Below are positions 27,460 to 54,020 of a DNA stretch of 57,226 bases, one piece after another; the first letter of the stretch is position 1; every line of letters starts with the position of its first letter. Origin of the DNA: Candidatus Woesearchaeota archaeon (GTDB lineage: Archaea > Nanobdellota > Nanobdellia > Woesearchaeales > GW2011-AR9). The stretch spans positions 1 to 57,226 of the forward strand of contig JACOZP010000009.1 of the NCBI GenBank assembly GCA_016181265.1. The letters run 5' to 3'. A program made the position numbers and the translations under genes. A model generated the notes under the pieces. The model saw nothing but the letters and a program-made list of their open reading frames with translations. It was not told the DNA's origin and did no database searches.

Positions 27460-27867
27460 ATGGTAACATTTCAGTTTGTCCCCTATCAAGATATTGAGGC
27501 TTTGACTTCTGCTAAGCGCATTAACAAGCTCTTAAATATTGTCAAAGGTGATCGTATTGTCATTATGGAAGGTCGTCTCCGCAAAGAAGAAGAAGCGGAT
27601 TTGATCGAAATTACCATGGAAGAGATCGGTTCTAAATTTCGTGGAATAGAGTTAAGCGTCATTTATCCTGATAAGACAAAATTAGATGCGATGCAAAAAT
27701 TACGCAGCATGTTCACCAATATGATTCTCGGAGACCGTCAAGGGTTGACGATCATCGGTCCGGCTTCGATTGTCAAGCGCATTGAGAAAGACCCCGATAA
27801 AATTGAACTGTTTACCAAAGATAACGTGAATTCACCCCGCTACCGCGGTAAGCGAAAAAATAAATAG
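27460..27867 (+). CDS. oapB: DUF2073 family protein (OapB)
   Basis: EEEADLIEITMEEI..F.GIE, GLTIIGPA. Confidence 0.85.
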   Translation: MVTFQFVPYQDIEALTSAKRINKLLNIVKGDRIVIMEGRLRKEEEADLIEITMEEIGSKFRGIELSVIYPDKTKLDAMQKLRSMFTNMILGDRQGLTIIGPASIVKRIEKDPDKIELFTKDNVNSPRYRGKRKNK

Positions 27868-27888
27868 GGGTAGCACTTCTGGAAGCGT

Positions 27889-28290
27889 ATGCCACACCAA
27901 TGTGTTCGTTGCAGTACGCTCTATCCTGATGGAGCACAAGAGATTCTGAAAGGCTGCCAGTGCGGCGCACGCCTCTTTTTCTACATCAAGAAAAAACATA
28001 TCGAAGAAGGTAAAGAACTGATTAATAATCTTTCTGTTGAAGACAAAAAACAGATCGAAACAGATATTGCTGAGATCATGACCATCAAAGAGGAAGATCT
28101 TGATAAGCCCGTTATCCTTGACATTGAGGCCATTCGTGTTCTCCAACCGGGGAAATATGAACTAGATCTAGTTCATCTATTCAAAAAAGACCCATTGATT
28201 ATCAAATTGGAAGAAGGGAAATATATGATTGATCTAGGGCAGTTGTTTGCCAAAGGCAAAGAAGGGATGGATAACGAAGAAGAGGATTAA
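27889..28290 (+). CDS. oapC: Zn-ribbon DUF2072 family protein (OapC)
   Basis: MPHQCVRC..ILKGCQCG, IRV..PGKYELDL, EEGKY.IDL. Confidence 0.88.
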   Translation: MPHQCVRCSTLYPDGAQEILKGCQCGARLFFYIKKKHIEEGKELINNLSVEDKKQIETDIAEIMTIKEEDLDKPVILDIEAIRVLQPGKYELDLVHLFKKDPLIIKLEEGKYMIDLGQLFAKGKEGMDNEEED

Positions 28291-29352: not shown

Positions 29353-29448
29353 GCACCGGTGGTATAATGGCTAGTATCTCAGCCTTCCATTTTCGGATGA
29401 AGGTTTAGAAGAGAGCTGATGATCCGGGTTCGAATCCCGGCCGGTGCA
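29353..29448 (+). tRNA. tRNA-Gly(TCC) with 24-nt intron at 37/38 (29390-29413)
   Basis: Acceptor GCACCGG/CCGGTGC, anticodon stem TCAGC/GCTGA, loop CT-TCC-A, T-loop TTCGAAT; CTTC/GAAG helix between 3-nt bulges. Confidence 0.93.
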
Positions 29449-29521
29449 CTCATTCTTTAACTAGGTCAAAAATATTTTCAACAGCGTTAAATTTATAAAT
29501 AACAAATTTATACTCCCCAAT

Positions 29522-35072: not shown

Positions 35073-35588
35073 ATGTCTCCATTCAAACGGATAATGGTTA
35101 TTTCATTTTCCGTTAATCTGCTAGAAGTGTTGATGATCATCAAATGCAATGGAGAACGGAAATCACTCTTTTTAGACAAAGAGGCACAACGAAGGATAGA
35201 CCTGTATGGAAACGCAAAGTGGGCAATCGTCGATCTATTGAATGAAACGTATTCTTCTCATTTTGCTGCTCCGATCGACCTCTACCATTGGTTGTATTTT
35301 CAAGAACACGATGAAGTTGCCTATTTCCTTAACGAAGCTGGTTCAAATGTCTTGAACTATGGCGAGAATAAACTACCCTTGGCATTTCATCTTTGGCTCG
35401 GCGAGAAGGGTTTTATCATTGGTATCGAACAAGAAGGGAAAGGCTTTAATGCCCTTCAAATTGACGAATTACGTCTCAAAGAAAATGAAGGTGCCGGGTT
35501 TGAATTCTTTCGGAATTGTCACGCCACTATTTTTTTCGACAACCCGCGGAACGCAAATGTTATCTATTTTATGCAGACGTGGCAGTAG
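35073..35588 (+). CDS. Stand-alone GHKL/HATPase-like protein
   Basis: N-box-like NEAGSNVLNYG, G1-like QEGKGF, G2-like EGAGF. Confidence 0.5.
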   Translation: MSPFKRIMVISFSVNLLEVLMIIKCNGERKSLFLDKEAQRRIDLYGNAKWAIVDLLNETYSSHFAAPIDLYHWLYFQEHDEVAYFLNEAGSNVLNYGENKLPLAFHLWLGEKGFIIGIEQEGKGFNALQIDELRLKENEGAGFEFFRNCHATIFFDNPRNANVIYFMQTWQ

Positions 35589-37371
35589 GATAACGTTCTC
35601 CCATCAATAATTCAAAATACTCTTTCATCTCTCCGCCATATTGGATCGTATTCGTCCGTGCGTGGCAAGAGGTACATACTGTTACTAAGTTATCTGGTCG
35701 AGTATCTTTGTGATTGTAATTGATGTGGTGGACATGAAAATTGTGCCCTGACTGGCCTCTTTGTTCAGCGGGAGATTTATGACACCATTGGCAGGCATGT
35801 CCGTCTCGCTCTAAGATCTCCGGCTTAAGCTGTTGGAAGAGACGTTCATTGGAAGGTGTTCCATTTATTCTTGTCTGCGTTGCCTTATATGCGGCGATCA
35901 ATTGCCAAGAATATCTTGGTTTTCCTTCATCATCTTCAAATAACCCGACAATCTCCGTAGCTTTATATCCATCTTCAAGAAGTCCGGCGATTACTTCGAG
36001 GTCGTTGGAGGGAAAATGAGAGCCTTTTCCTTTTGGAGAAGTTTTGGCGTGATTCCGTTGTCTAGTGTGTGCTGCTTTATACCCTGCTAGTTCCATTTTT
36101 GTGAGACTGTAATTTTGCATGATCTCTGCGTCGGGAGTATTAGATGAGAGAGCAACATAGATAGACTCACGAAGACCACCCTTACTGTTCCTTCTCGTTG
36201 TCTCGCTGTTATGTCCCCTGAAACTAGCTCTTTCCGGTTCTAAAATGATGCGATCTAAAGGTTGAAGAGCACTTCGATGAAACCCATCCATGTTTTCGGT
36301 ATGCCATCGGTCGTATTGCTGAATCAGCTGGAGCGTTTTTCTTCGATCTCGAATATCAAAAACAAATTTCCCTTTGAGAAGCTTGTACTTTACGATGTTA
36401 TCTAACCTCTGTCCCTTAGTAAATGGAAGCATTATTCCTCCAAAAAGATAAAAATCACTGACCATTGGGGTTCTGGAATCACTGACATAAGCATATGCCT
36501 CATGGGCCTCTACTTTCTGTTGTCTCGTTTCTAAGAAAGAGAAAATATTGAGCAATGTTTTCCCAAAATCATCAGGAGCAGATTCACTAAAAACACGCCC
36601 GAGATAACCCGTAACTAACTTTGCCCGTCCATCATTGGCATCAGCAAGAACTCTCACCATTACTTCTTGAACGTCCGGAGTTAGTGATCTCATCCATGTC
36701 CGATAGATTGGGCTATTCCAAAAGCCGGTACCATTGAACATTTTTTGAATAGGAAGAACTTGAATAACCCTGTCTCGTGTTTCTGTTATATCAAAATCCC
36801 CCGAACTTTGCTCACCAATAGTCAGATAGAGCTGTCCCATTTCCTGTGCAGTCATACTTGGTAAATCTTTTTCAAAAGGGAAGTATTTGGATGTGTGTTC
36901 TAAACTATCTCGGACGTCCTGATTCTCTCGTCCTTTTTGGTAGTTAGTGATCAGGACGCCATGAGGAGCAAGCCACTTGTTGTGGGCGATTCGATCTAAT
37001 GTTTTACACTTCTCATCATTAAAATACCCGCAGTAATCCAGACTTATCACGTCAAACGGCTGCGTCGCCGGATGAGAAAGGTAATCTAAAGCAGAAGCTG
37101 GAACTATTTTAATTCGCTGTTCTAATGTTTCATTTACTGCACACATCGCGTCGTATTCTCGTGGGTCACATTCCAAGCTAACAACATTTTTTCGCTTGAC
37201 GCCCAGCCGATCATACACATCAAACACTTCCGTCATCTCTCGACCCGCGAAACAAAGGACACGAAAATTTCTGATCTGATGAGGAGTATAATGCTTTCTC
37301 ACAAAATCAACGATTCTCTCCCGCCATAATGATTTGGCAGGGTCTGTGGAAAACGATTTTACACTGCCCAT
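35569..37371 (-). CDS. Methyltransferase-like (Rossmann) N-terminus + two helical repeats + C-terminal HNH endonuclease
   Basis: VLCFAG, VVSLECD, FDVISLDYCG, LAPHGVLITNY; repeats LAGYKAAHTR / IAAYKATQTR; ERDGHACQWC..HVHHIN....NLVTVCTSCH. Confidence 0.7.
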   Translation of the reverse strand: MGSVKSFSTDPAKSLWRERIVDFVRKHYTPHQIRNFRVLCFAGREMTEVFDVYDRLGVKRKNVVSLECDPREYDAMCAVNETLEQRIKIVPASALDYLSHPATQPFDVISLDYCGYFNDEKCKTLDRIAHNKWLAPHGVLITNYQKGRENQDVRDSLEHTSKYFPFEKDLPSMTAQEMGQLYLTIGEQSSGDFDITETRDRVIQVLPIQKMFNGTGFWNSPIYRTWMRSLTPDVQEVMVRVLADANDGRAKLVTGYLGRVFSESAPDDFGKTLLNIFSFLETRQQKVEAHEAYAYVSDSRTPMVSDFYLFGGIMLPFTKGQRLDNIVKYKLLKGKFVFDIRDRRKTLQLIQQYDRWHTENMDGFHRSALQPLDRIILEPERASFRGHNSETTRRNSKGGLRESIYVALSSNTPDAEIMQNYSLTKMELAGYKAAHTRQRNHAKTSPKGKGSHFPSNDLEVIAGLLEDGYKATEIVGLFEDDEGKPRYSWQLIAAYKATQTRINGTPSNERLFQQLKPEILERDGHACQWCHKSPAEQRGQSGHNFHVHHINYNHKDTRPDNLVTVCTSCHARTNTIQYGGEMKEYFELLMGERYPTATSA

Positions 37372-37372
37372 T

Positions 37373-38749
37373 CTACACCCTGAATTTCAATAAGTCATCG
37401 TGAGGGTCGTGTTTCTCGCGGACAAAACGGCCAATATCCGTCGTACAGTTTGCATCATAACCATGTTCCATTACGCGCGCCCACAGCAATCTTTCCATCT
37501 CCGTATGATTCAGCGTTCTCTTCGCTGTCCGTTTTGATCCTTCTTTTTTATGTTCGATCATGATCGTCTGTCCACGCAGGCGATCGACATAATCCATCAT
37601 GTCCTTCGTTGGCAGGACGAAGGGCAGCAAAGCGATCGTCTCCTTTGGATCGTGTTGATACATCCGGCGCAAACTATGGACTGCCGCAATCTCATGCGGG
37701 CAGAAGAAATCTTCATCGTTGCCCAGATGAGCTGCTTTTCGTCGGCGATCGCTGCGGAACGTTTTATCTTCACAATAACAGACGCCTCGGACTTCCCATG
37801 TTTGACTATATGCAATCTCACTGCCACGTGGAAGGAGCGGGATTCCCGTCAATTGGAGAGTGTACGGTCCTTTGCCCGGCCTTGATCGAGAAGGGACGCG
37901 CATAACTCGTCCGCTATGTCGGGCAAAAGGAATAGAAACAGGTTCGATCAGATCATTAAATGAAACATCCAAGCTATTCACAAGCCATTGCAGTTTTTTA
38001 CCATCTCTCTCGCGTTGAAGATATCTCTTGTATTTCTCTAATTTTGCTTCAATGATTTTCTTTTCTTCTACAGTAAGATCGTCTTTATAGCGGCTACTCG
38101 CACTCTTTCCCTGTCTTAGTTCTTTTTCCATCACGGGAATTAACAGTTTGTAGGCGGCAAAATCTTGGAATGCGCGCAACTCTGCTCCTTGGATTGCGCG
38201 ATATAATGAGACAACACGGCGGTGGCTATCCTTTCCGAACCACGAATAACTCGTACATGTTTCTTCTCCTAATTCTTCCTTATGCTCATGCAGATAATCA
38301 AACGCAGCTTTGAGGACTTTTTCTGGTGCCCATTGCGCTTCTCGCTTTTTTCTCTGAGAAAGCCTCCCACTTTTTGCATCTTCTCCCAACAGTGCTCGTT
38401 TGACGTGGGCCGCATCTAGATTAACCAACGTCCCTACGTCATAGACTACGCGCTGGCGAGCTTCGTCTGCAGGAATTCGATATTCTTCTGGTAAGACGAG
38501 AAGGGCATCCGCGGGAAGCGCATCAATTTTTCGCACGAGACCAAGAGTATCGAGGGTATATTCTCCTCCCCCCAATAAAGACCCTAAATCTCCTTCCGCC
38601 GTCCCGACAACGACTCTTCCCTGCAACGCCAGATCACGTACGTCCTCTACGGTGATAGGATTTTTATCCGGAAAGTGCTGCCGCATAACATCCGTCGCCG
38701 TAGCATCAGCAAAGTAGTCCTCTCTTTTACTTCTCAAATCAAGGTACAT
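37373..38749 (-). CDS. Hypothetical protein with SWIM-type zinc finger
   Basis: VPSRS..G..Y and CYCED...(~19 aa)...FCPHEIAA (CxC-xn-CxH); stop 1 bp from the start of the downstream gene. Confidence 0.65.
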   Translation of the reverse strand: MYLDLRSKREDYFADATATDVMRQHFPDKNPITVEDVRDLALQGRVVVGTAEGDLGSLLGGGEYTLDTLGLVRKIDALPADALLVLPEEYRIPADEARQRVVYDVGTLVNLDAAHVKRALLGEDAKSGRLSQRKKREAQWAPEKVLKAAFDYLHEHKEELGEETCTSYSWFGKDSHRRVVSLYRAIQGAELRAFQDFAAYKLLIPVMEKELRQGKSASSRYKDDLTVEEKKIIEAKLEKYKRYLQRERDGKKLQWLVNSLDVSFNDLIEPVSIPFARHSGRVMRVPSRSRPGKGPYTLQLTGIPLLPRGSEIAYSQTWEVRGVCYCEDKTFRSDRRRKAAHLGNDEDFFCPHEIAAVHSLRRMYQHDPKETIALLPFVLPTKDMMDYVDRLRGQTIMIEHKKEGSKRTAKRTLNHTEMERLLWARVMEHGYDANCTTDIGRFVREKHDPHDDLLKFRV

Positions 38750-38818: not shown

Positions 38819-39847
38819 ATGATGTACCGTATCAAACAGATCCCTGAAGACTTCGTTGTCAAAGAGAAGAGTATCATTACGCCTGAAACACAGGGCAGAT
38901 ACTGCTACGTTCTTCTGCGAAAAACACAGCGCAATACTCTTGATGTCATCAAAGAAATAAGCCGGCAATTACACCTCAAAGAAAAACAGATCGGTTTCGC
39001 CGGTACAAAAGACAAGCATGGTATTACCGAGCAAGTGATTTCGCTCTTCGCTGTATCCCCCACACGGATTACTGCTCTTCACCTAGAAAACGTCGTATTA
39101 ACTATCCTCGGGTTCGGACATAAACCTATTTCTCTCGGTGATTTAGAAAGCAATTATTTTAAGATAGTTGTACGCAATCTGGAGCCCGAAAGTGCGGCAG
39201 ACACTCTGCCTCTATCTCCTTACTTAGAAAATTATTTCGATGAACAACGTTTCTCTACTGATAACGTCTCCGTAGGGAAAGCTTTGCTAAAGAAGAACTT
39301 CGCTGAAGCCATAGAACTAATGCGCAACGATGTCTGCCTTTCTCATTTGCAAGAGCATCCTCGAGATTATGTCGGAGCTTTAAAAAAAATCCCTCTCCGT
39401 TTATTACGTATGTATATCAACGCATTCCAAAGTTCATTATGGAACCAGACGGCTGCTGAATATCTCCGAAGGAAAGGAAAGGTCTGCAAAAAAGTATCCT
39501 CTTCGCAGGGAGAGTTAGTTTTCGTCAACGAAATGACAACCATTAAAGATATACAACTTCCTCTCGTCGGTTTTGGTGACCTCCTTACTGACGAGCCACT
39601 CATCCGTGAGATCGTCGATAATCTTTTACGTGAAGAAAACATTTCCCAGACTGATTTTATTATTCGTCAGATCCCTGAATTAACGGTTGAAGGAGAACTA
39701 CGTTCTTTGTTTGTGCCCGTAACAGAGATCGCTCTTGATCAGCTAAACGATGATGAACTCAATGGAGGAAAGAAGAAAATAAGGATTCAATTTACTCTTC
39801 CCAGAGGCAGTTATGCTACTATGGTCATCAAGAAATGGCTCGAGTAG
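38819..39847 (+). CDS. truD: tRNA pseudouridine(13) synthase
   Basis: PEDFVVKE, GFAGTKDKHGITEQ, NYFDEQRFS, AFQS.LWN, FTLPRGSYAT. Confidence 0.95.
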   Translation: MMYRIKQIPEDFVVKEKSIITPETQGRYCYVLLRKTQRNTLDVIKEISRQLHLKEKQIGFAGTKDKHGITEQVISLFAVSPTRITALHLENVVLTILGFGHKPISLGDLESNYFKIVVRNLEPESAADTLPLSPYLENYFDEQRFSTDNVSVGKALLKKNFAEAIELMRNDVCLSHLQEHPRDYVGALKKIPLRLLRMYINAFQSSLWNQTAAEYLRRKGKVCKKVSSSQGELVFVNEMTTIKDIQLPLVGFGDLLTDEPLIREIVDNLLREENISQTDFIIRQIPELTVEGELRSLFVPVTEIALDQLNDDELNGGKKKIRIQFTLPRGSYATMVIKKWLE

Positions 39848-44370: not shown

Positions 44371-45483
44371 ATGACCACCGCCAAACTCACCGGACTTGCA
44401 CCCGAATTTGCTAATGTTAACGTTACCATTAGCAGACCGACGCTTCTCGGAAGAAGCCTTCCGGATAGAGACGGAAAAATAAAATTAACGTCTGCAGTAG
44501 ATCATTACTTGCCTCCCGATCTCCGTGGGACAGCCGTTGATTCCATCTTCACCTTTGGTCCTGGAACGGAAGCTACTTCCCGTCATCATGCTTTAATCTA
44601 CCCTGTTGGAGAACGATTTATGCTCACTGATTTGGGCGCAACGAATGGTACTTTTTATTCGTTTATGGATGACCGCCGTAGACTCTTTCGTGGGTCAACC
44701 TATCTCCTTCGAGATAACGACATCATTCATCTCGGCAATCCTCACGGAGGAATCAGGTTTAGGATTGAATATGTTTCCTCTCCTCCACCTCCCAAGCCAG
44801 AATCACTACCCTCTTTCCATCAACGTCTTGATCAGCTGGCCTACGAAGCAACCCAAAATTATGCTCTTCTTGTAGGAAGTCAAGGGAATCTTAAGGGGGT
44901 TGAAAATGATACTGCTGCGGTAAAAAGGACTCTGGAGAGCCGACGTGGTTTCTCGGGAAACATCGAGACATTATTGGGAGAACGAGCGAATTTTAATACT
45001 GTCGTCCATAAACTGGAACAGCTTGAACATCGTGCTACTCCTCAATCACTTACCGTTTTCTATTACTCTGGACATGGGATGGAGGACGGCGGTGATTTAG
45101 ATCTTCACGGCGTCGCTAAGATATCACCTCGCGAATTATATCTTTTCTTAAGAGATATTCCCGGCAGGAAAGTTGTTATTATTGATGCTTGTAATTCCAG
45201 CCATTTTGCTGACAAAGAGATCATCACTCCACAAACATTAGTCCTTGCTGCATCGCGAGAAAATGCATACGAAGGAGATGTTGGAGATGGGAGAAGAATG
45301 GGTTACTTCACTCGCGCACTCCTGCGTCTCATTGATTCCTCTCAAACACGACTTAACCTGAAAGAGCTACAAGAACAACTCGGCGCCGATGTTAAACTCG
45401 CCCGGAAGGGACAAGAACCGCAAGTTGTTGGAGAAACCATTTTCGTTGGAACACAAATGATTAACGTTGAAGAGTTATTGTAG
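44371..45483 (+). CDS. FHA domain-metacaspase (peptidase C14) fusion
   Basis: FHA: LLGR, SRHHA, DLG.TNGT, D.I.LG. Pro-rich linker. Caspase: YALLVG, ND, YYSGHG, IIDACNS, GYFTRAL. Confidence 0.85.
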   Translation: MTTAKLTGLAPEFANVNVTISRPTLLGRSLPDRDGKIKLTSAVDHYLPPDLRGTAVDSIFTFGPGTEATSRHHALIYPVGERFMLTDLGATNGTFYSFMDDRRRLFRGSTYLLRDNDIIHLGNPHGGIRFRIEYVSSPPPPKPESLPSFHQRLDQLAYEATQNYALLVGSQGNLKGVENDTAAVKRTLESRRGFSGNIETLLGERANFNTVVHKLEQLEHRATPQSLTVFYYSGHGMEDGGDLDLHGVAKISPRELYLFLRDIPGRKVVIIDACNSSHFADKEIITPQTLVLAASRENAYEGDVGDGRRMGYFTRALLRLIDSSQTRLNLKELQEQLGADVKLARKGQEPQVVGETIFVGTQMINVEELL

Positions 45484-53369: not shown

Positions 53370-54020
53370 TTAGGGACGGATATTTCTACTAGCACAATAT
53401 TCCTCTACTCTTCTTTCTAAATCGGGATAGTATGTGGAGGATAATGGACCTCTCGCTTTTTGATGGTAATAGAAAGCAAAAAACCAGGCAAAATGTTCTC
53501 TTAAATTGGCATTGTGCTCAAAGCCATCCTTTTCAAATTTTTCTTTGAATTCCCGAAAATTCCGGCGCGAGGACAAGCTTTCTCCAAAGAGCGCCCTGCC
53601 GACGACATGATCTACAGAATGACCGATTTCATGGATCGTAACTTGTTCTATTGTCATCTCTTTCGTGAAATAATCGCCATGGACCCCAATATAGATATCT
53701 CCTAGTTTAATAGAATAACCATTTTGGGAATGAGCTCTAATGACACCACTATGGTCCACACAAAGCCCGGCTACTTTGTCCCACGTATACCCATTAAATC
53801 CATGAATGTCATTCCTCTTACTCCGCGCGAGATCTTTAAACTCTGGAAATTGCGTTACTGCGCCGTTAAAATAAACGATTCTGACTCCTTGTTGAAAGAG
53901 TATTTCCAGAAAAGAAGGGGGTATCTTATTAAGAACTTCCAACGATTCAATTATTTTTGGCTCGAATGGCGTTAAGCTAGAACGATATTCTATTGTAAAG
54001 GGTGGAACATAATCAATCAT
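53370..54020 (-). CDS. Anthrax lethal factor (ATLF)-like zinc metallopeptidase
   Basis: LNKIPPSFL, W..VAG, IHEIGHSVDH, REHFA..F..YY. Confidence 0.7.
   Translation of the reverse strand: MIDYVPPFTIEYRSSLTPFEPKIIESLEVLNKIPPSFLEILFQQGVRIVYFNGAVTQFPEFKDLARSKRNDIHGFNGYTWDKVAGLCVDHSGVIRAHSQNGYSIKLGDIYIGVHGDYFTKEMTIEQVTIHEIGHSVDHVVGRALFGESLSSRRNFREFKEKFEKDGFEHNANLREHFAWFFAFYYHQKARGPLSSTYYPDLERRVEEYCASRNIRP

Follow-up and report, generated by a model that had tools for sequence, protein, structure and literature searches.

Type IIG/IIC restriction enzymes such as Eco57I and MmeI are chains of around 1000 amino acids (aa) that begin with a PD-(D/E)XK nuclease and also contain an N6-adenine methyltransferase of the gamma class, bearing the motif NPPY. 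RsmD, a second point of comparison here, is a housekeeping rRNA enzyme. Few defence genes have been recognised in the small genomes of the DPANN (Diapherotrites, Parvarchaeota, Aenigmarchaeota, Nanoarchaeota and Nanohaloarchaeota) archaea. A third group, the wH-HNH (winged helix-HNH) Type IV enzymes, does occur in archaea; these are proteins of 224-496 aa, without a methyltransferase fold, in which a DNA-reading module of helix-turn-helix (HTH) type directly precedes the HNH domain (PMC11037411). The DNA analysed here comes from the chromosome of one such archaeon and comprises the 57,226 nucleotides of contig JACOZP010000009.1 from Candidatus Woesearchaeota archaeon (assembly GCA_016181265.1), hereafter the window. 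Two adjacent genes in it, called gene 1 and gene 2 below, are our subject: the second encodes a methyltransferase fold, candidate HTH modules and an HNH domain in a single chain.

A sequence-only reading of the window had proposed that these two genes form a defence system, pairing a SWIM-finger protein with a methyltransferase-like/HNH fusion. The geometry on which that proposal drew is accurate. Both open reading frames (ORFs, translation table 11) lie on the minus strand and are separated by 1 bp, the junction reading TAG-A-ATG, and both start codons are supported by homologues sharing the first residue. Our own interpretation, which we consider probable rather than secure, is that two separate genes abut: gene 1 would be an old, vertically inherited gene of Woesearchaeota/Nanobdellota, and gene 2 a self-contained accessory enzyme occupying a cargo slot. 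The two genes and their parts are as follows.

37373..38749, minus strand: gene 1, 458 aa, ORF under table 11, a lineage-conserved Woesearchaeota/Nanobdellota protein
37694..37780, minus strand: SWIM-like zinc knuckle CxC-x23-CxH of gene 1, residues 324-352, located by motif positions
35569..37371, minus strand: gene 2, 600 aa, ORF under table 11, methyltransferase-fold/HTH/HNH protein, probably inserted as an accessory gene where gene 1 and the ORF o171 meet
36922..37371, minus strand: gene 2 residues 1-150, N-terminal helix followed by strands 1-5 of an RsmD-like fold of the class I methyltransferases (Foldseek, PDB profile)
36520..36921, minus strand: gene 2 residues 151-284, helical hypervariable insert, a candidate specificity module (drop in identity, model helices)
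36232..36519, minus strand: gene 2 residues 285-380, long beta hairpin, two further strands and a long helix (model), with the conserved block YxYVSDSxxPMxSDFYLF
35866..36183, minus strand: gene 2 residues 397-502, a pair of small HTH-like modules made of helices, each with [LI]A[GA]YKA..TR at its end (motifs and model)
35593..35853, minus strand: gene 2 residues 507-593, zinc-type HNH domain, CxxC ... HVHH ... DNL ... CxxCH (Pfam, PHROGs)

The proposed pairing was examined in the neighbourhood of gene 1 in other genomes. A single scan of species-representative genomes supplied 26 loci with a gene 1 homologue, from 26 other species, and neighbours were detected at these loci by tblastn with the proteins that surround gene 1 in the window. 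Two of those proteins recur.

38819..39847, plus strand: TruD (tRNA pseudouridine synthase D; Pfam TruD E 2.1e-69), the usual divergent neighbour of gene 1
35073..35588, plus strand: o171, an unannotated 171-aa ORF that usually lies convergent to gene 1; the last 20 bp at its 3' end are shared with gene 2

TruD is in the flank of gene 1 at 17 of the 26 loci, and is both divergent and within 300 bp at 13 of them. The ORF o171 is found beside gene 1 at 19 loci, being convergent and within 300 bp at 15, and an iterated profile search for it returned the same 19; among the seven loci without it, five have 8 kb of room downstream, L014 has 6.6 kb and L008 only 859 bp. The usual arrangement of TruD, gene 1 and o171 is thus a conserved order, and at loci having neither TruD nor o171 the neighbours of gene 1 share no gene, except among close relatives. 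A gene 2 homologue beside gene 1 was found at none of the 26 loci. The only match of gene 2 type near gene 1, in L013 (E 8.6e-15), is to the methyltransferase-like domain of a different protein lying 3.3 kb off, beyond o171.

The divergence of gene 1 points the same way. In the 17 genomes with gene 1, TruD and o171 together (16 of the 26 loci, and the window), pairwise identity averages 0.46 in gene 1 and 0.49 in both TruD and o171, and the Spearman correlation of pairwise identities is 0.47 between gene 1 and TruD and 0.36 between TruD and o171. Since gene 1 diverges about as fast as TruD and tracks it at least as well as o171 does, we regard gene 1 as a vertically inherited lineage gene. Outside the clade to which the window belongs, gene 1 is consequently both a conserved gene of its lineage, accompanied by TruD and o171, and unlinked to gene 2, whose core also occurs alone on a phage and a plasmid (see below); the proposed two-gene system finds no support in this comparison.

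Two observations on these loci may be added. The protein o171 has no family match above noise in Pfam, NCBIfam or PHROGs and no match in the PDB. It is convergent to gene 1 in 19 of the 26 species, including those in which gene 1 is as little as 33% identical, and it may be the real functional neighbour of gene 1. Secondly, nine of the gene 1-bearing records (L002, L004, L005, L007, L014-L016, L023 and L026) are titled 'uncultured Methanosarcinales archaeon'; seven of these, all except L014 and L016, have TruD and/or o171 beside gene 1. The Methanosarcinales label of these nine metagenome-assembled genomes is probably wrong.

Insertions recur where gene 1 and o171 adjoin: in other genomes this junction is either closed or filled with unrelated cargo, some of it resembling toxin-antitoxin modules. 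In 15 loci it is closed, the distance from gene 1 to o171 being -1 to 253 bp, and in four (L002, L006, L009 and L013) it is filled by 447-2125 bp, as follows.

L006, 9506-11296: 2.0 kb of cargo with a Polbeta-type nucleotidyltransferase, a 147-aa ORF and a PIN and MazE-like pair
L013, 9383-10008: 0.9 kb of cargo with DUF5678 and a 133-aa partner ORF
L009, 8303-10291: 2.1 kb of cargo with two paralogous 320-aa ORFs without a Pfam match
L002, 9473-9799: 0.45 kb of cargo with a single 108-aa ORF

The first cargo gene is on the strand of gene 1 in three of the four filled junctions, and in L009 it starts 8 bp past the gene 1 stop codon. In the window the same slot is taken by gene 2, which starts 1 bp past gene 1 and runs 20 bp into the end of o171. 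Because unrelated cargo takes the same downstream position elsewhere, the close spacing of gene 1 and gene 2 is better seen as a property of the slot than as a sign of partnership.

Gene 2 itself proves to be much as the sequence-only reading had drawn it. The Rossmann methyltransferase-like N-terminus is borne out by structure comparison: the model of gene 2 (built from 13 sequences, predicted local distance difference test score (pLDDT) 75.5) retrieves the RsmD-like structure 2ift_B with Foldseek at E 2.2e-6, with a template modelling (TM) score of 0.63 on the target over 137 columns, and also 3p9n. There are 112 PDB matches with E <= 0.001, and the 50 listed are all methyltransferases or enzymes bound to S-adenosylmethionine (SAM) or S-adenosylhomocysteine; against viral structures only generic class I methyltransferases were found. 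Pfam matches in this region, to Methyltransf_35 and Cons_hypoth95, are below threshold (for Cons_hypoth95, 16 bits against a cut-off of 24). The motifs named earlier are located at residues 38-43 (VLCFAG), 65-69 (SLECD) and 111-115 (LDYCG). The claim that LDYCG stands where amino-methyltransferases have DPPY also holds good: a family profile matches 2ift at E 1.6e-4, aligning FDVISLDYCG on FDVVFLDPPF, so that the motif IV form (D/N/S)PP(Y/F/W) of amino-methyltransferases is not kept. Family-wide, motif IV instead takes the form D-[YF]-x-G, found as DYTG in 47, DYCG in 21 and DYKG in 10 of 157 members, 41 having no match to the regular expression. Cys114 of LDYCG was considered as a catalytic nucleophile and rejected, as Thr, Lys or Gln stands there in most members. 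In the 50-member alignment A4 (24% mean identity) K13, R17, E67, D112, R199 and Y295 are invariant, and G43, S297 and D306 nearly so.

Beyond the methyltransferase part, the model places helices at 151-282 and strands at 285-296 and 302-313. The hairpin 285-313 probably provides strands 6-7 closing the methyltransferase fold, judging from this model, in which case residues 151-284 are inserted within the domain; a distant plasmid-borne relative that matches in two pieces some 300 aa apart fits such an arrangement. The two helical repeats described earlier are upheld in part. The 10-residue motif does occur twice (LAGYKAAHTR at 428-437, IAAYKATQTR at 492-501), in each case on predicted helix, the modules being underlain by model helices at 397-440 and 455-502; BLASTP, however, found no alignment between the two segments (41-51 aa), so that the repeat stands on the motif and its conservation in alignment A1, not on statistics. 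Assignment of the modules as HTH is tentative, being prompted by weak DUF433 matches in 2 of 13 close homologues and 3 of 46 wider members and by a resemblance to the ArsR-type repressor 1y0u at E 0.12.

The intact zinc-binding HNH domain is confirmed, with CQWC at 527-530, HVHH at 546-549, DNL at 560-562 and CTSC(H) at 566-570 all present. Pfam HNH (PF01844) scores 21.6 bits, just over its cut-off of 21.4, and PHROG HNH families match down to E 5.4e-12. The signature is kept in all eight HNH-bearing close homologues and this, together with the invariance of E67 and D112 and the near-invariance of G43, makes it likely that gene 2 encodes a live enzyme.

The fold comparison raises the question of whether gene 2 might simply be a housekeeping RsmD-like methyltransferase of rRNA or tRNA, with the HNH serving to bind RNA or zinc and the proximity of TruD reflecting a grouping of RNA-modification genes. 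The nearest solved folds are indeed RsmD-type rRNA N2-methylguanosine (m2G) methyltransferases, 2ift and 3p9n, and TruD is only 1.4 kb from gene 2. A housekeeping enzyme would nevertheless hardly be missing from the same position in all 26 other species, have 13 close homologues where gene 1 has 53 and be distributed patchily, including on phage and plasmid; moreover, the DPPF of RsmD motif IV is lost, the central insert is hypervariable and the catalytic signature of the HNH is intact. We therefore regard this explanation as highly improbable. The likeness to the RsmD-like family (Cons_hypoth95, PF03602) lies in the Rossmann fold of residues 1-150, the acidic residue E67 of motif II and the Asp heading motif IV; the differences lie in D-[YF]-x-G instead of DPPF, in the 134-residue insert and in the appended HTH modules and HNH, 2ift and 3p9n being small proteins of about 160-200 aa.

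The family to which gene 2 belongs is large, and its nuclease is an optional part. Close homologues number 13 including gene 2 itself, the same 13 being returned by a search with the wide alignment A4, and the HNH is absent from five of them (P0009-P0013). When a family profile built without the modelled HNH columns was searched against 1.84 billion 50%-identity clusters, it found 862 representatives at E <= 1e-3, of which 574 remain when the limit is set at 1e-10 and 198 when it is set at 1e-30; among 144 new representatives listed, 97 are 400-520 aa long. An HNH homologous to that of the window is present in 21 of 157 members (the 13 and the 144), leaving 136 without the nuclease. On family trees built from the first 165 residues of 156 sequences, 20 of which have the HNH, its distribution requires 10-11 gains or losses, at least five of them forced by well-supported branches. 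A Pfam scan of 46 representatives gave no match for 34, HNH for four, radical SAM for one, TPR for two, DUF433-like domains for three and weak methyltransferase matches for two. Among 50 core-family members none matched PHROGs or PADLOC, and NCBIfam yielded two single chance-level matches.

Members are found well outside DPANN archaea. A 522-aa core-family protein (HMM E 1.4e-31; HMM, hidden Markov model) is encoded by the uncultured huge phage LR756511 (595 kb), where it lies directly downstream of an ORF with an HNH signature (LR756511.1, L027 3858-9438; Pfam DUF968 E 1.3e-4, below cut-off); a typical family member, P0085, matches this same huge phage only and no plasmid. The plasmid relative mentioned above is a distant member of 618 aa, with the motif DACG, on Caulobacter plasmid NZ_CP048816.1 (L028 5746-11369, E 4.9e-20); it is annotated as a class I SAM-dependent methyltransferase, and its HMM match falls at positions 18-143 and 306-338, about 300 aa apart. 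An Atlas search gave look-alikes of gene 2 in archaeal (0.95), viral (0.94) and bacterial (0.91) clusters, which are leads, not alignments.

The surroundings of these relatives are varied. On the other side of the phage protein is a PARP and WGR protein, followed by an ATP-dependent DNA ligase, and an ORF with sigma-70 region 4 lies upstream; the plasmid gene is followed by two hypothetical genes and one for an 815-aa nucleoside triphosphate pyrophosphohydrolase. In L013, the protein 3.3 kb from gene 1 noted above is of 394 aa, with a C-terminal methyltransferase-like domain as in gene 2 (HMM E 1.1e-42), and adjoins two ORFs that match no family and a protein of 1202 aa containing three HTH_17 modules. 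This region, L013 10956-17295, may be an integrated element, located 1.7 kb beyond o171.

The insert at residues 151-284 is hypervariable. Among the seven HNH-bearing close relatives P0001-P0007, of which the protein of the window is one, the 134 residues exist in two types: type A in P0001-P0003, with 43-82% identity within the type, and type B in P0004-P0007, with 47-86%. Between the types, the insert is only 17-23% identical, against 72-87% for the methyltransferase part and 65-81% for the HNH among all seven proteins. In a tree of the flanks the window protein pairs with P0005 (support 85/94), although their insert types differ, and in the gene 1 tree the window pairs with P0015, mirroring that arrangement. 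Taken together, these sequence comparisons suggest exchange of a cassette at the insert.

Modularity of this kind invites another explanation, namely that gene 2 is a selfish, homing-type gene, spread into empty gene 1/o171 junctions by its HNH-plus-HTH tail, with the methyltransferase core as phage-derived cargo, for example an orphan modification enzyme. It would account for the precise insertion of a single gene between two conserved ones with no other mobile-element genes, for an HNH most similar to phage HNH families and repeatedly gained or lost within the family, and for the HNH-signature ORF directly upstream of the huge-phage member. The zinc CxxC type of HNH is, however, common to McrA, IscB and ZorE-like nucleases and not specific to homing. 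Also, P0001-P0007 form a monophyletic HNH subfamily (support 98 in the family tree), and in the one comparable pair the flanks track the host gene tree, which fits vertical descent, while a hypervariable insert would be unexpected in a homing enzyme with one conserved target. A homing origin thus seems to us unlikely.

On the reading that we prefer, gene 2 encodes an accessory nuclease linked to modification, which works alone and whose specificity module can be swapped. In such an enzyme the insert and the HTH modules would select a nucleic-acid site, most likely in DNA; the methyltransferase fold with its D-[YF]-x-G motif would bind SAM and either mark or sense the selected site; and the zinc-type HNH would cut, giving the logic of a single-chain restriction-modification enzyme. 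Use of SAM, a DNA substrate, discrimination of self from non-self and a role in defence are all extrapolations from this domain content. A conflict-related role would fit several findings: an insert that varies like a cassette, an effector tail that is modular, a patchy occurrence across domains and in a phage, and a slot filled elsewhere by toxin-antitoxin-like genes.

Comparison with described systems supports this only by analogy of parts. In the Type IIG/IIC enzymes, too, one chain unites a nuclease, a methyltransferase fold and a specificity region that differs among similar proteins; gene 2 departs from them in its C-terminal HNH and non-canonical motif IV, and 136 of the 157 family members lack a nuclease altogether. 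Its HTH-HNH tail recalls the wH-HNH Type IV enzymes by domain order, and the methyltransferase fold sets it apart from those enzymes (PMC11037411). To ZorE of Zorya type II and to IscB the likeness is confined to the HNH (PADLOC E 6.5e-8 at residues 513-587 and NCBIfam E 6.6e-9 at residues 515-577, respectively); scores are far below the NCBIfam cut-offs (12.7 against 600 bits for ZorE, 35.3 against 175 for IscB) and the rest of the proteins is unmatched. The expectation that no known defence system would be recognised is borne out, as PADLOC-DB 2.0 gives nothing for gene 1 and, for gene 2, only the resemblance of the HNH part to ZorE.

Several observations weigh against the view of two unrelated abutting genes, or against parts of it. 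Most directly, a tree built from 36 gene 1 sequences unites the window with P0015-P0021 in an eight-member clade (SH-aLRT, Shimodaira-Hasegawa-like approximate likelihood ratio test, 100) that contains none of the 26 loci, so that the absence of gene 2 from all 26 leaves linkage inside the clade of the window unaddressed. Within that clade there are eight gene 1 proteins to set beside seven close gene 2 proteins, the window included in each, and P0005 and P0015 derive from contigs of equal size (11737), as do P0006 and P0021 (10158). The pair may therefore be stably linked throughout the clade. Spacing of 1 bp leaves no room for an intergenic promoter, which suggests co-transcription; scans for promoters and terminators gave nothing above shuffled sequence with bacterial models, which are inapplicable to archaea. 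A recent insertion of gene 2 is marked by neither an integrase nor a clear break in composition (GC content at third codon positions is 0.374 in gene 2 and 0.328 in its insert, against 0.41-0.52 in the neighbours), and direct or inverted repeats around it are only short, imperfect two-copy matches of a kind often due to chance. As for the enzyme, DNA methylation is not assured given a motif IV without the (D/N/S)PP(Y/F) of DNA amino-methyltransferases, no PADLOC defence model matches the gene 2 core (0 of 50), and the genomic context of gene 2 relatives covers three loci, L013, L027 and L028. Finally, an approximately unbiased (AU) test on the flanks does not reject a tree uniting type A (p 0.213), which leaves cassette exchange suggested but not proven against fast divergence.

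These points allow for a true two-gene system limited to the clade of the window, in which gene 1 has been recruited as a sensor, DNA-binding or regulatory subunit and is co-transcribed with gene 2. The same strand and minimal spacing, the two further contigs whose equal sizes make it probable that they carry both genes, the nearly matching numbers of seven and eight, and the agreement of the gene 2 flank tree with the gene 1 tree for the window and P0005-P0015 are what such a system would produce. Linkage across the clade is, however, explained equally by a single insertion followed by vertical descent. Gene 1 has no adjacent gene 2 in any of the 26 other species, where its length and conserved residues are unchanged; other cargo sits in the same slot, three times out of four on its strand and in L009 at 8 bp spacing; and the gene 2 core manages alone in phage and plasmid. 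A further five gene 2 homologues, P0002, P0003, P0004, P0007 and the more distant P0008, are on contigs equal in size to that of no listed gene 1 homologue, although equal size is weak evidence either way since clusters report only their longest contig. On balance a clade-restricted partnership appears quite unlikely, and we retain the interpretation of two separate genes.

For gene 1, a word-indexed search of 5.8 billion proteins found homologues in 53 clusters, that of the window included, all full length (about 410-485 aa) and 36-86% identical; the few homologues with a named source, for gene 2 as well as gene 1, come from Woesearchaeota or Nanoarchaeia/Nanoarchaeota archaea, to which the locus records add Nanobdellota. 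It has no match in Pfam, NCBIfam, PADLOC or PHROGs, and tblastn against 50,697 phage records and 72,556 plasmids was likewise negative. The CxC-xn-CxH finger noticed earlier is present, with n = 23: the ligands are supplied by CYC at 324-326 and CPH at 350-352. Calling it a SWIM protein is justified in one respect and not in another. The signature agrees with that of the SWIM zinc finger (PF04434), CxC-x(n)-CxH, and the CxH opens a predicted helix (351-363) as it does there, but the Pfam SWIM profile matches none of the 53 family members at E <= 0.05 and the whole motif is complete in 43 and incomplete in 10 of them. By column, the ligands C/C/C/H are kept in 47, 50, 49 and 52 of the 53, making the motif less conserved than W170, E190, D266, S287, W318 and D328, which are invariant. 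The AlphaFold2 model, from the 53-sequence alignment, is compact (pLDDT 92.1, predicted TM score 0.92) and has no Foldseek match in the PDB at E <= 0.001, the best being at E 0.14 with TM below 0.12. An Atlas search reached scores of only 0.82, led by a cluster with 25% SWIM. The sole PDB sequence match, to ILF2 at E 0.24, was judged to be noise. Our literature search found no related work on SWIM zinc fingers in DPANN or on HNH/methyltransferase proteins in Woesearchaeota.

The sequence-only reading was right in placing the insertion among housekeeping genes, since gene 2 appears as an accessory gene in a window where family scans identify OapB/OapC, ZPR1, SMC, TruD, SRP54, a class I LysRS (lysyl-tRNA synthetase) and phosphoribosyl pyrophosphate (PRPP) synthetase. 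The genes for the origin-associated proteins OapB and OapC are adjacent at 27460-28290 on the plus strand, and their lying side by side implies that a replication origin may be near. A tRNA-Lys(UUU) gene at 29353-29449, also on the plus strand, has 97 nt; it exceeds the standard tRNA length, which suggests an intron. At 44371-45483 (plus strand) one ORF joins an FHA domain to a caspase-like Peptidase_C14 domain, and a 216-aa ORF at 53370-54020 (minus strand) matches the Pfam ATLF domain family at E 3.8e-15. Much of the remainder, 145-26552, is a large sugar/nonulosonic-acid cluster. It includes a PglD-like acetyltransferase, a cytidylyltransferase, a DegT aminotransferase, a flippase, a NeuB with a fused N-terminus resembling 2'-5' RNA ligase, and two proteins of the type I phosphodiesterase family, one of 1087 aa.

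The locus carries a lesson for the reading of compact archaeal genomes, in that close spacing was no proof here of a functional pair. Its wider interest lies in the gene 2 core. The family comprises 862 sequence clusters or more, for which there is no match in PHROGs or PADLOC, no credible match in NCBIfam and only sub-threshold methyltransferase matches in Pfam, and it is tractable for biochemistry thanks to its invariant residues and the cassette-like insert. It is conceivable, although we consider it doubtful, that gene 2 represents an undescribed and widespread class of single-protein modification/restriction enzymes in DPANN archaea, bacteria and huge phages, defined by D-[YF]-x-G, a swappable specificity cassette within the fold and an interchangeable C-terminal end (an HNH, a radical SAM domain, TPR or nothing), that would serve cells in defence and phages in counter-defence; and that gene 1, separately, is the first member of a new fold family. 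If true, a single-protein, modification-linked nuclease in a recurrent chromosomal slot would add to the means by which DPANN archaea handle foreign DNA.

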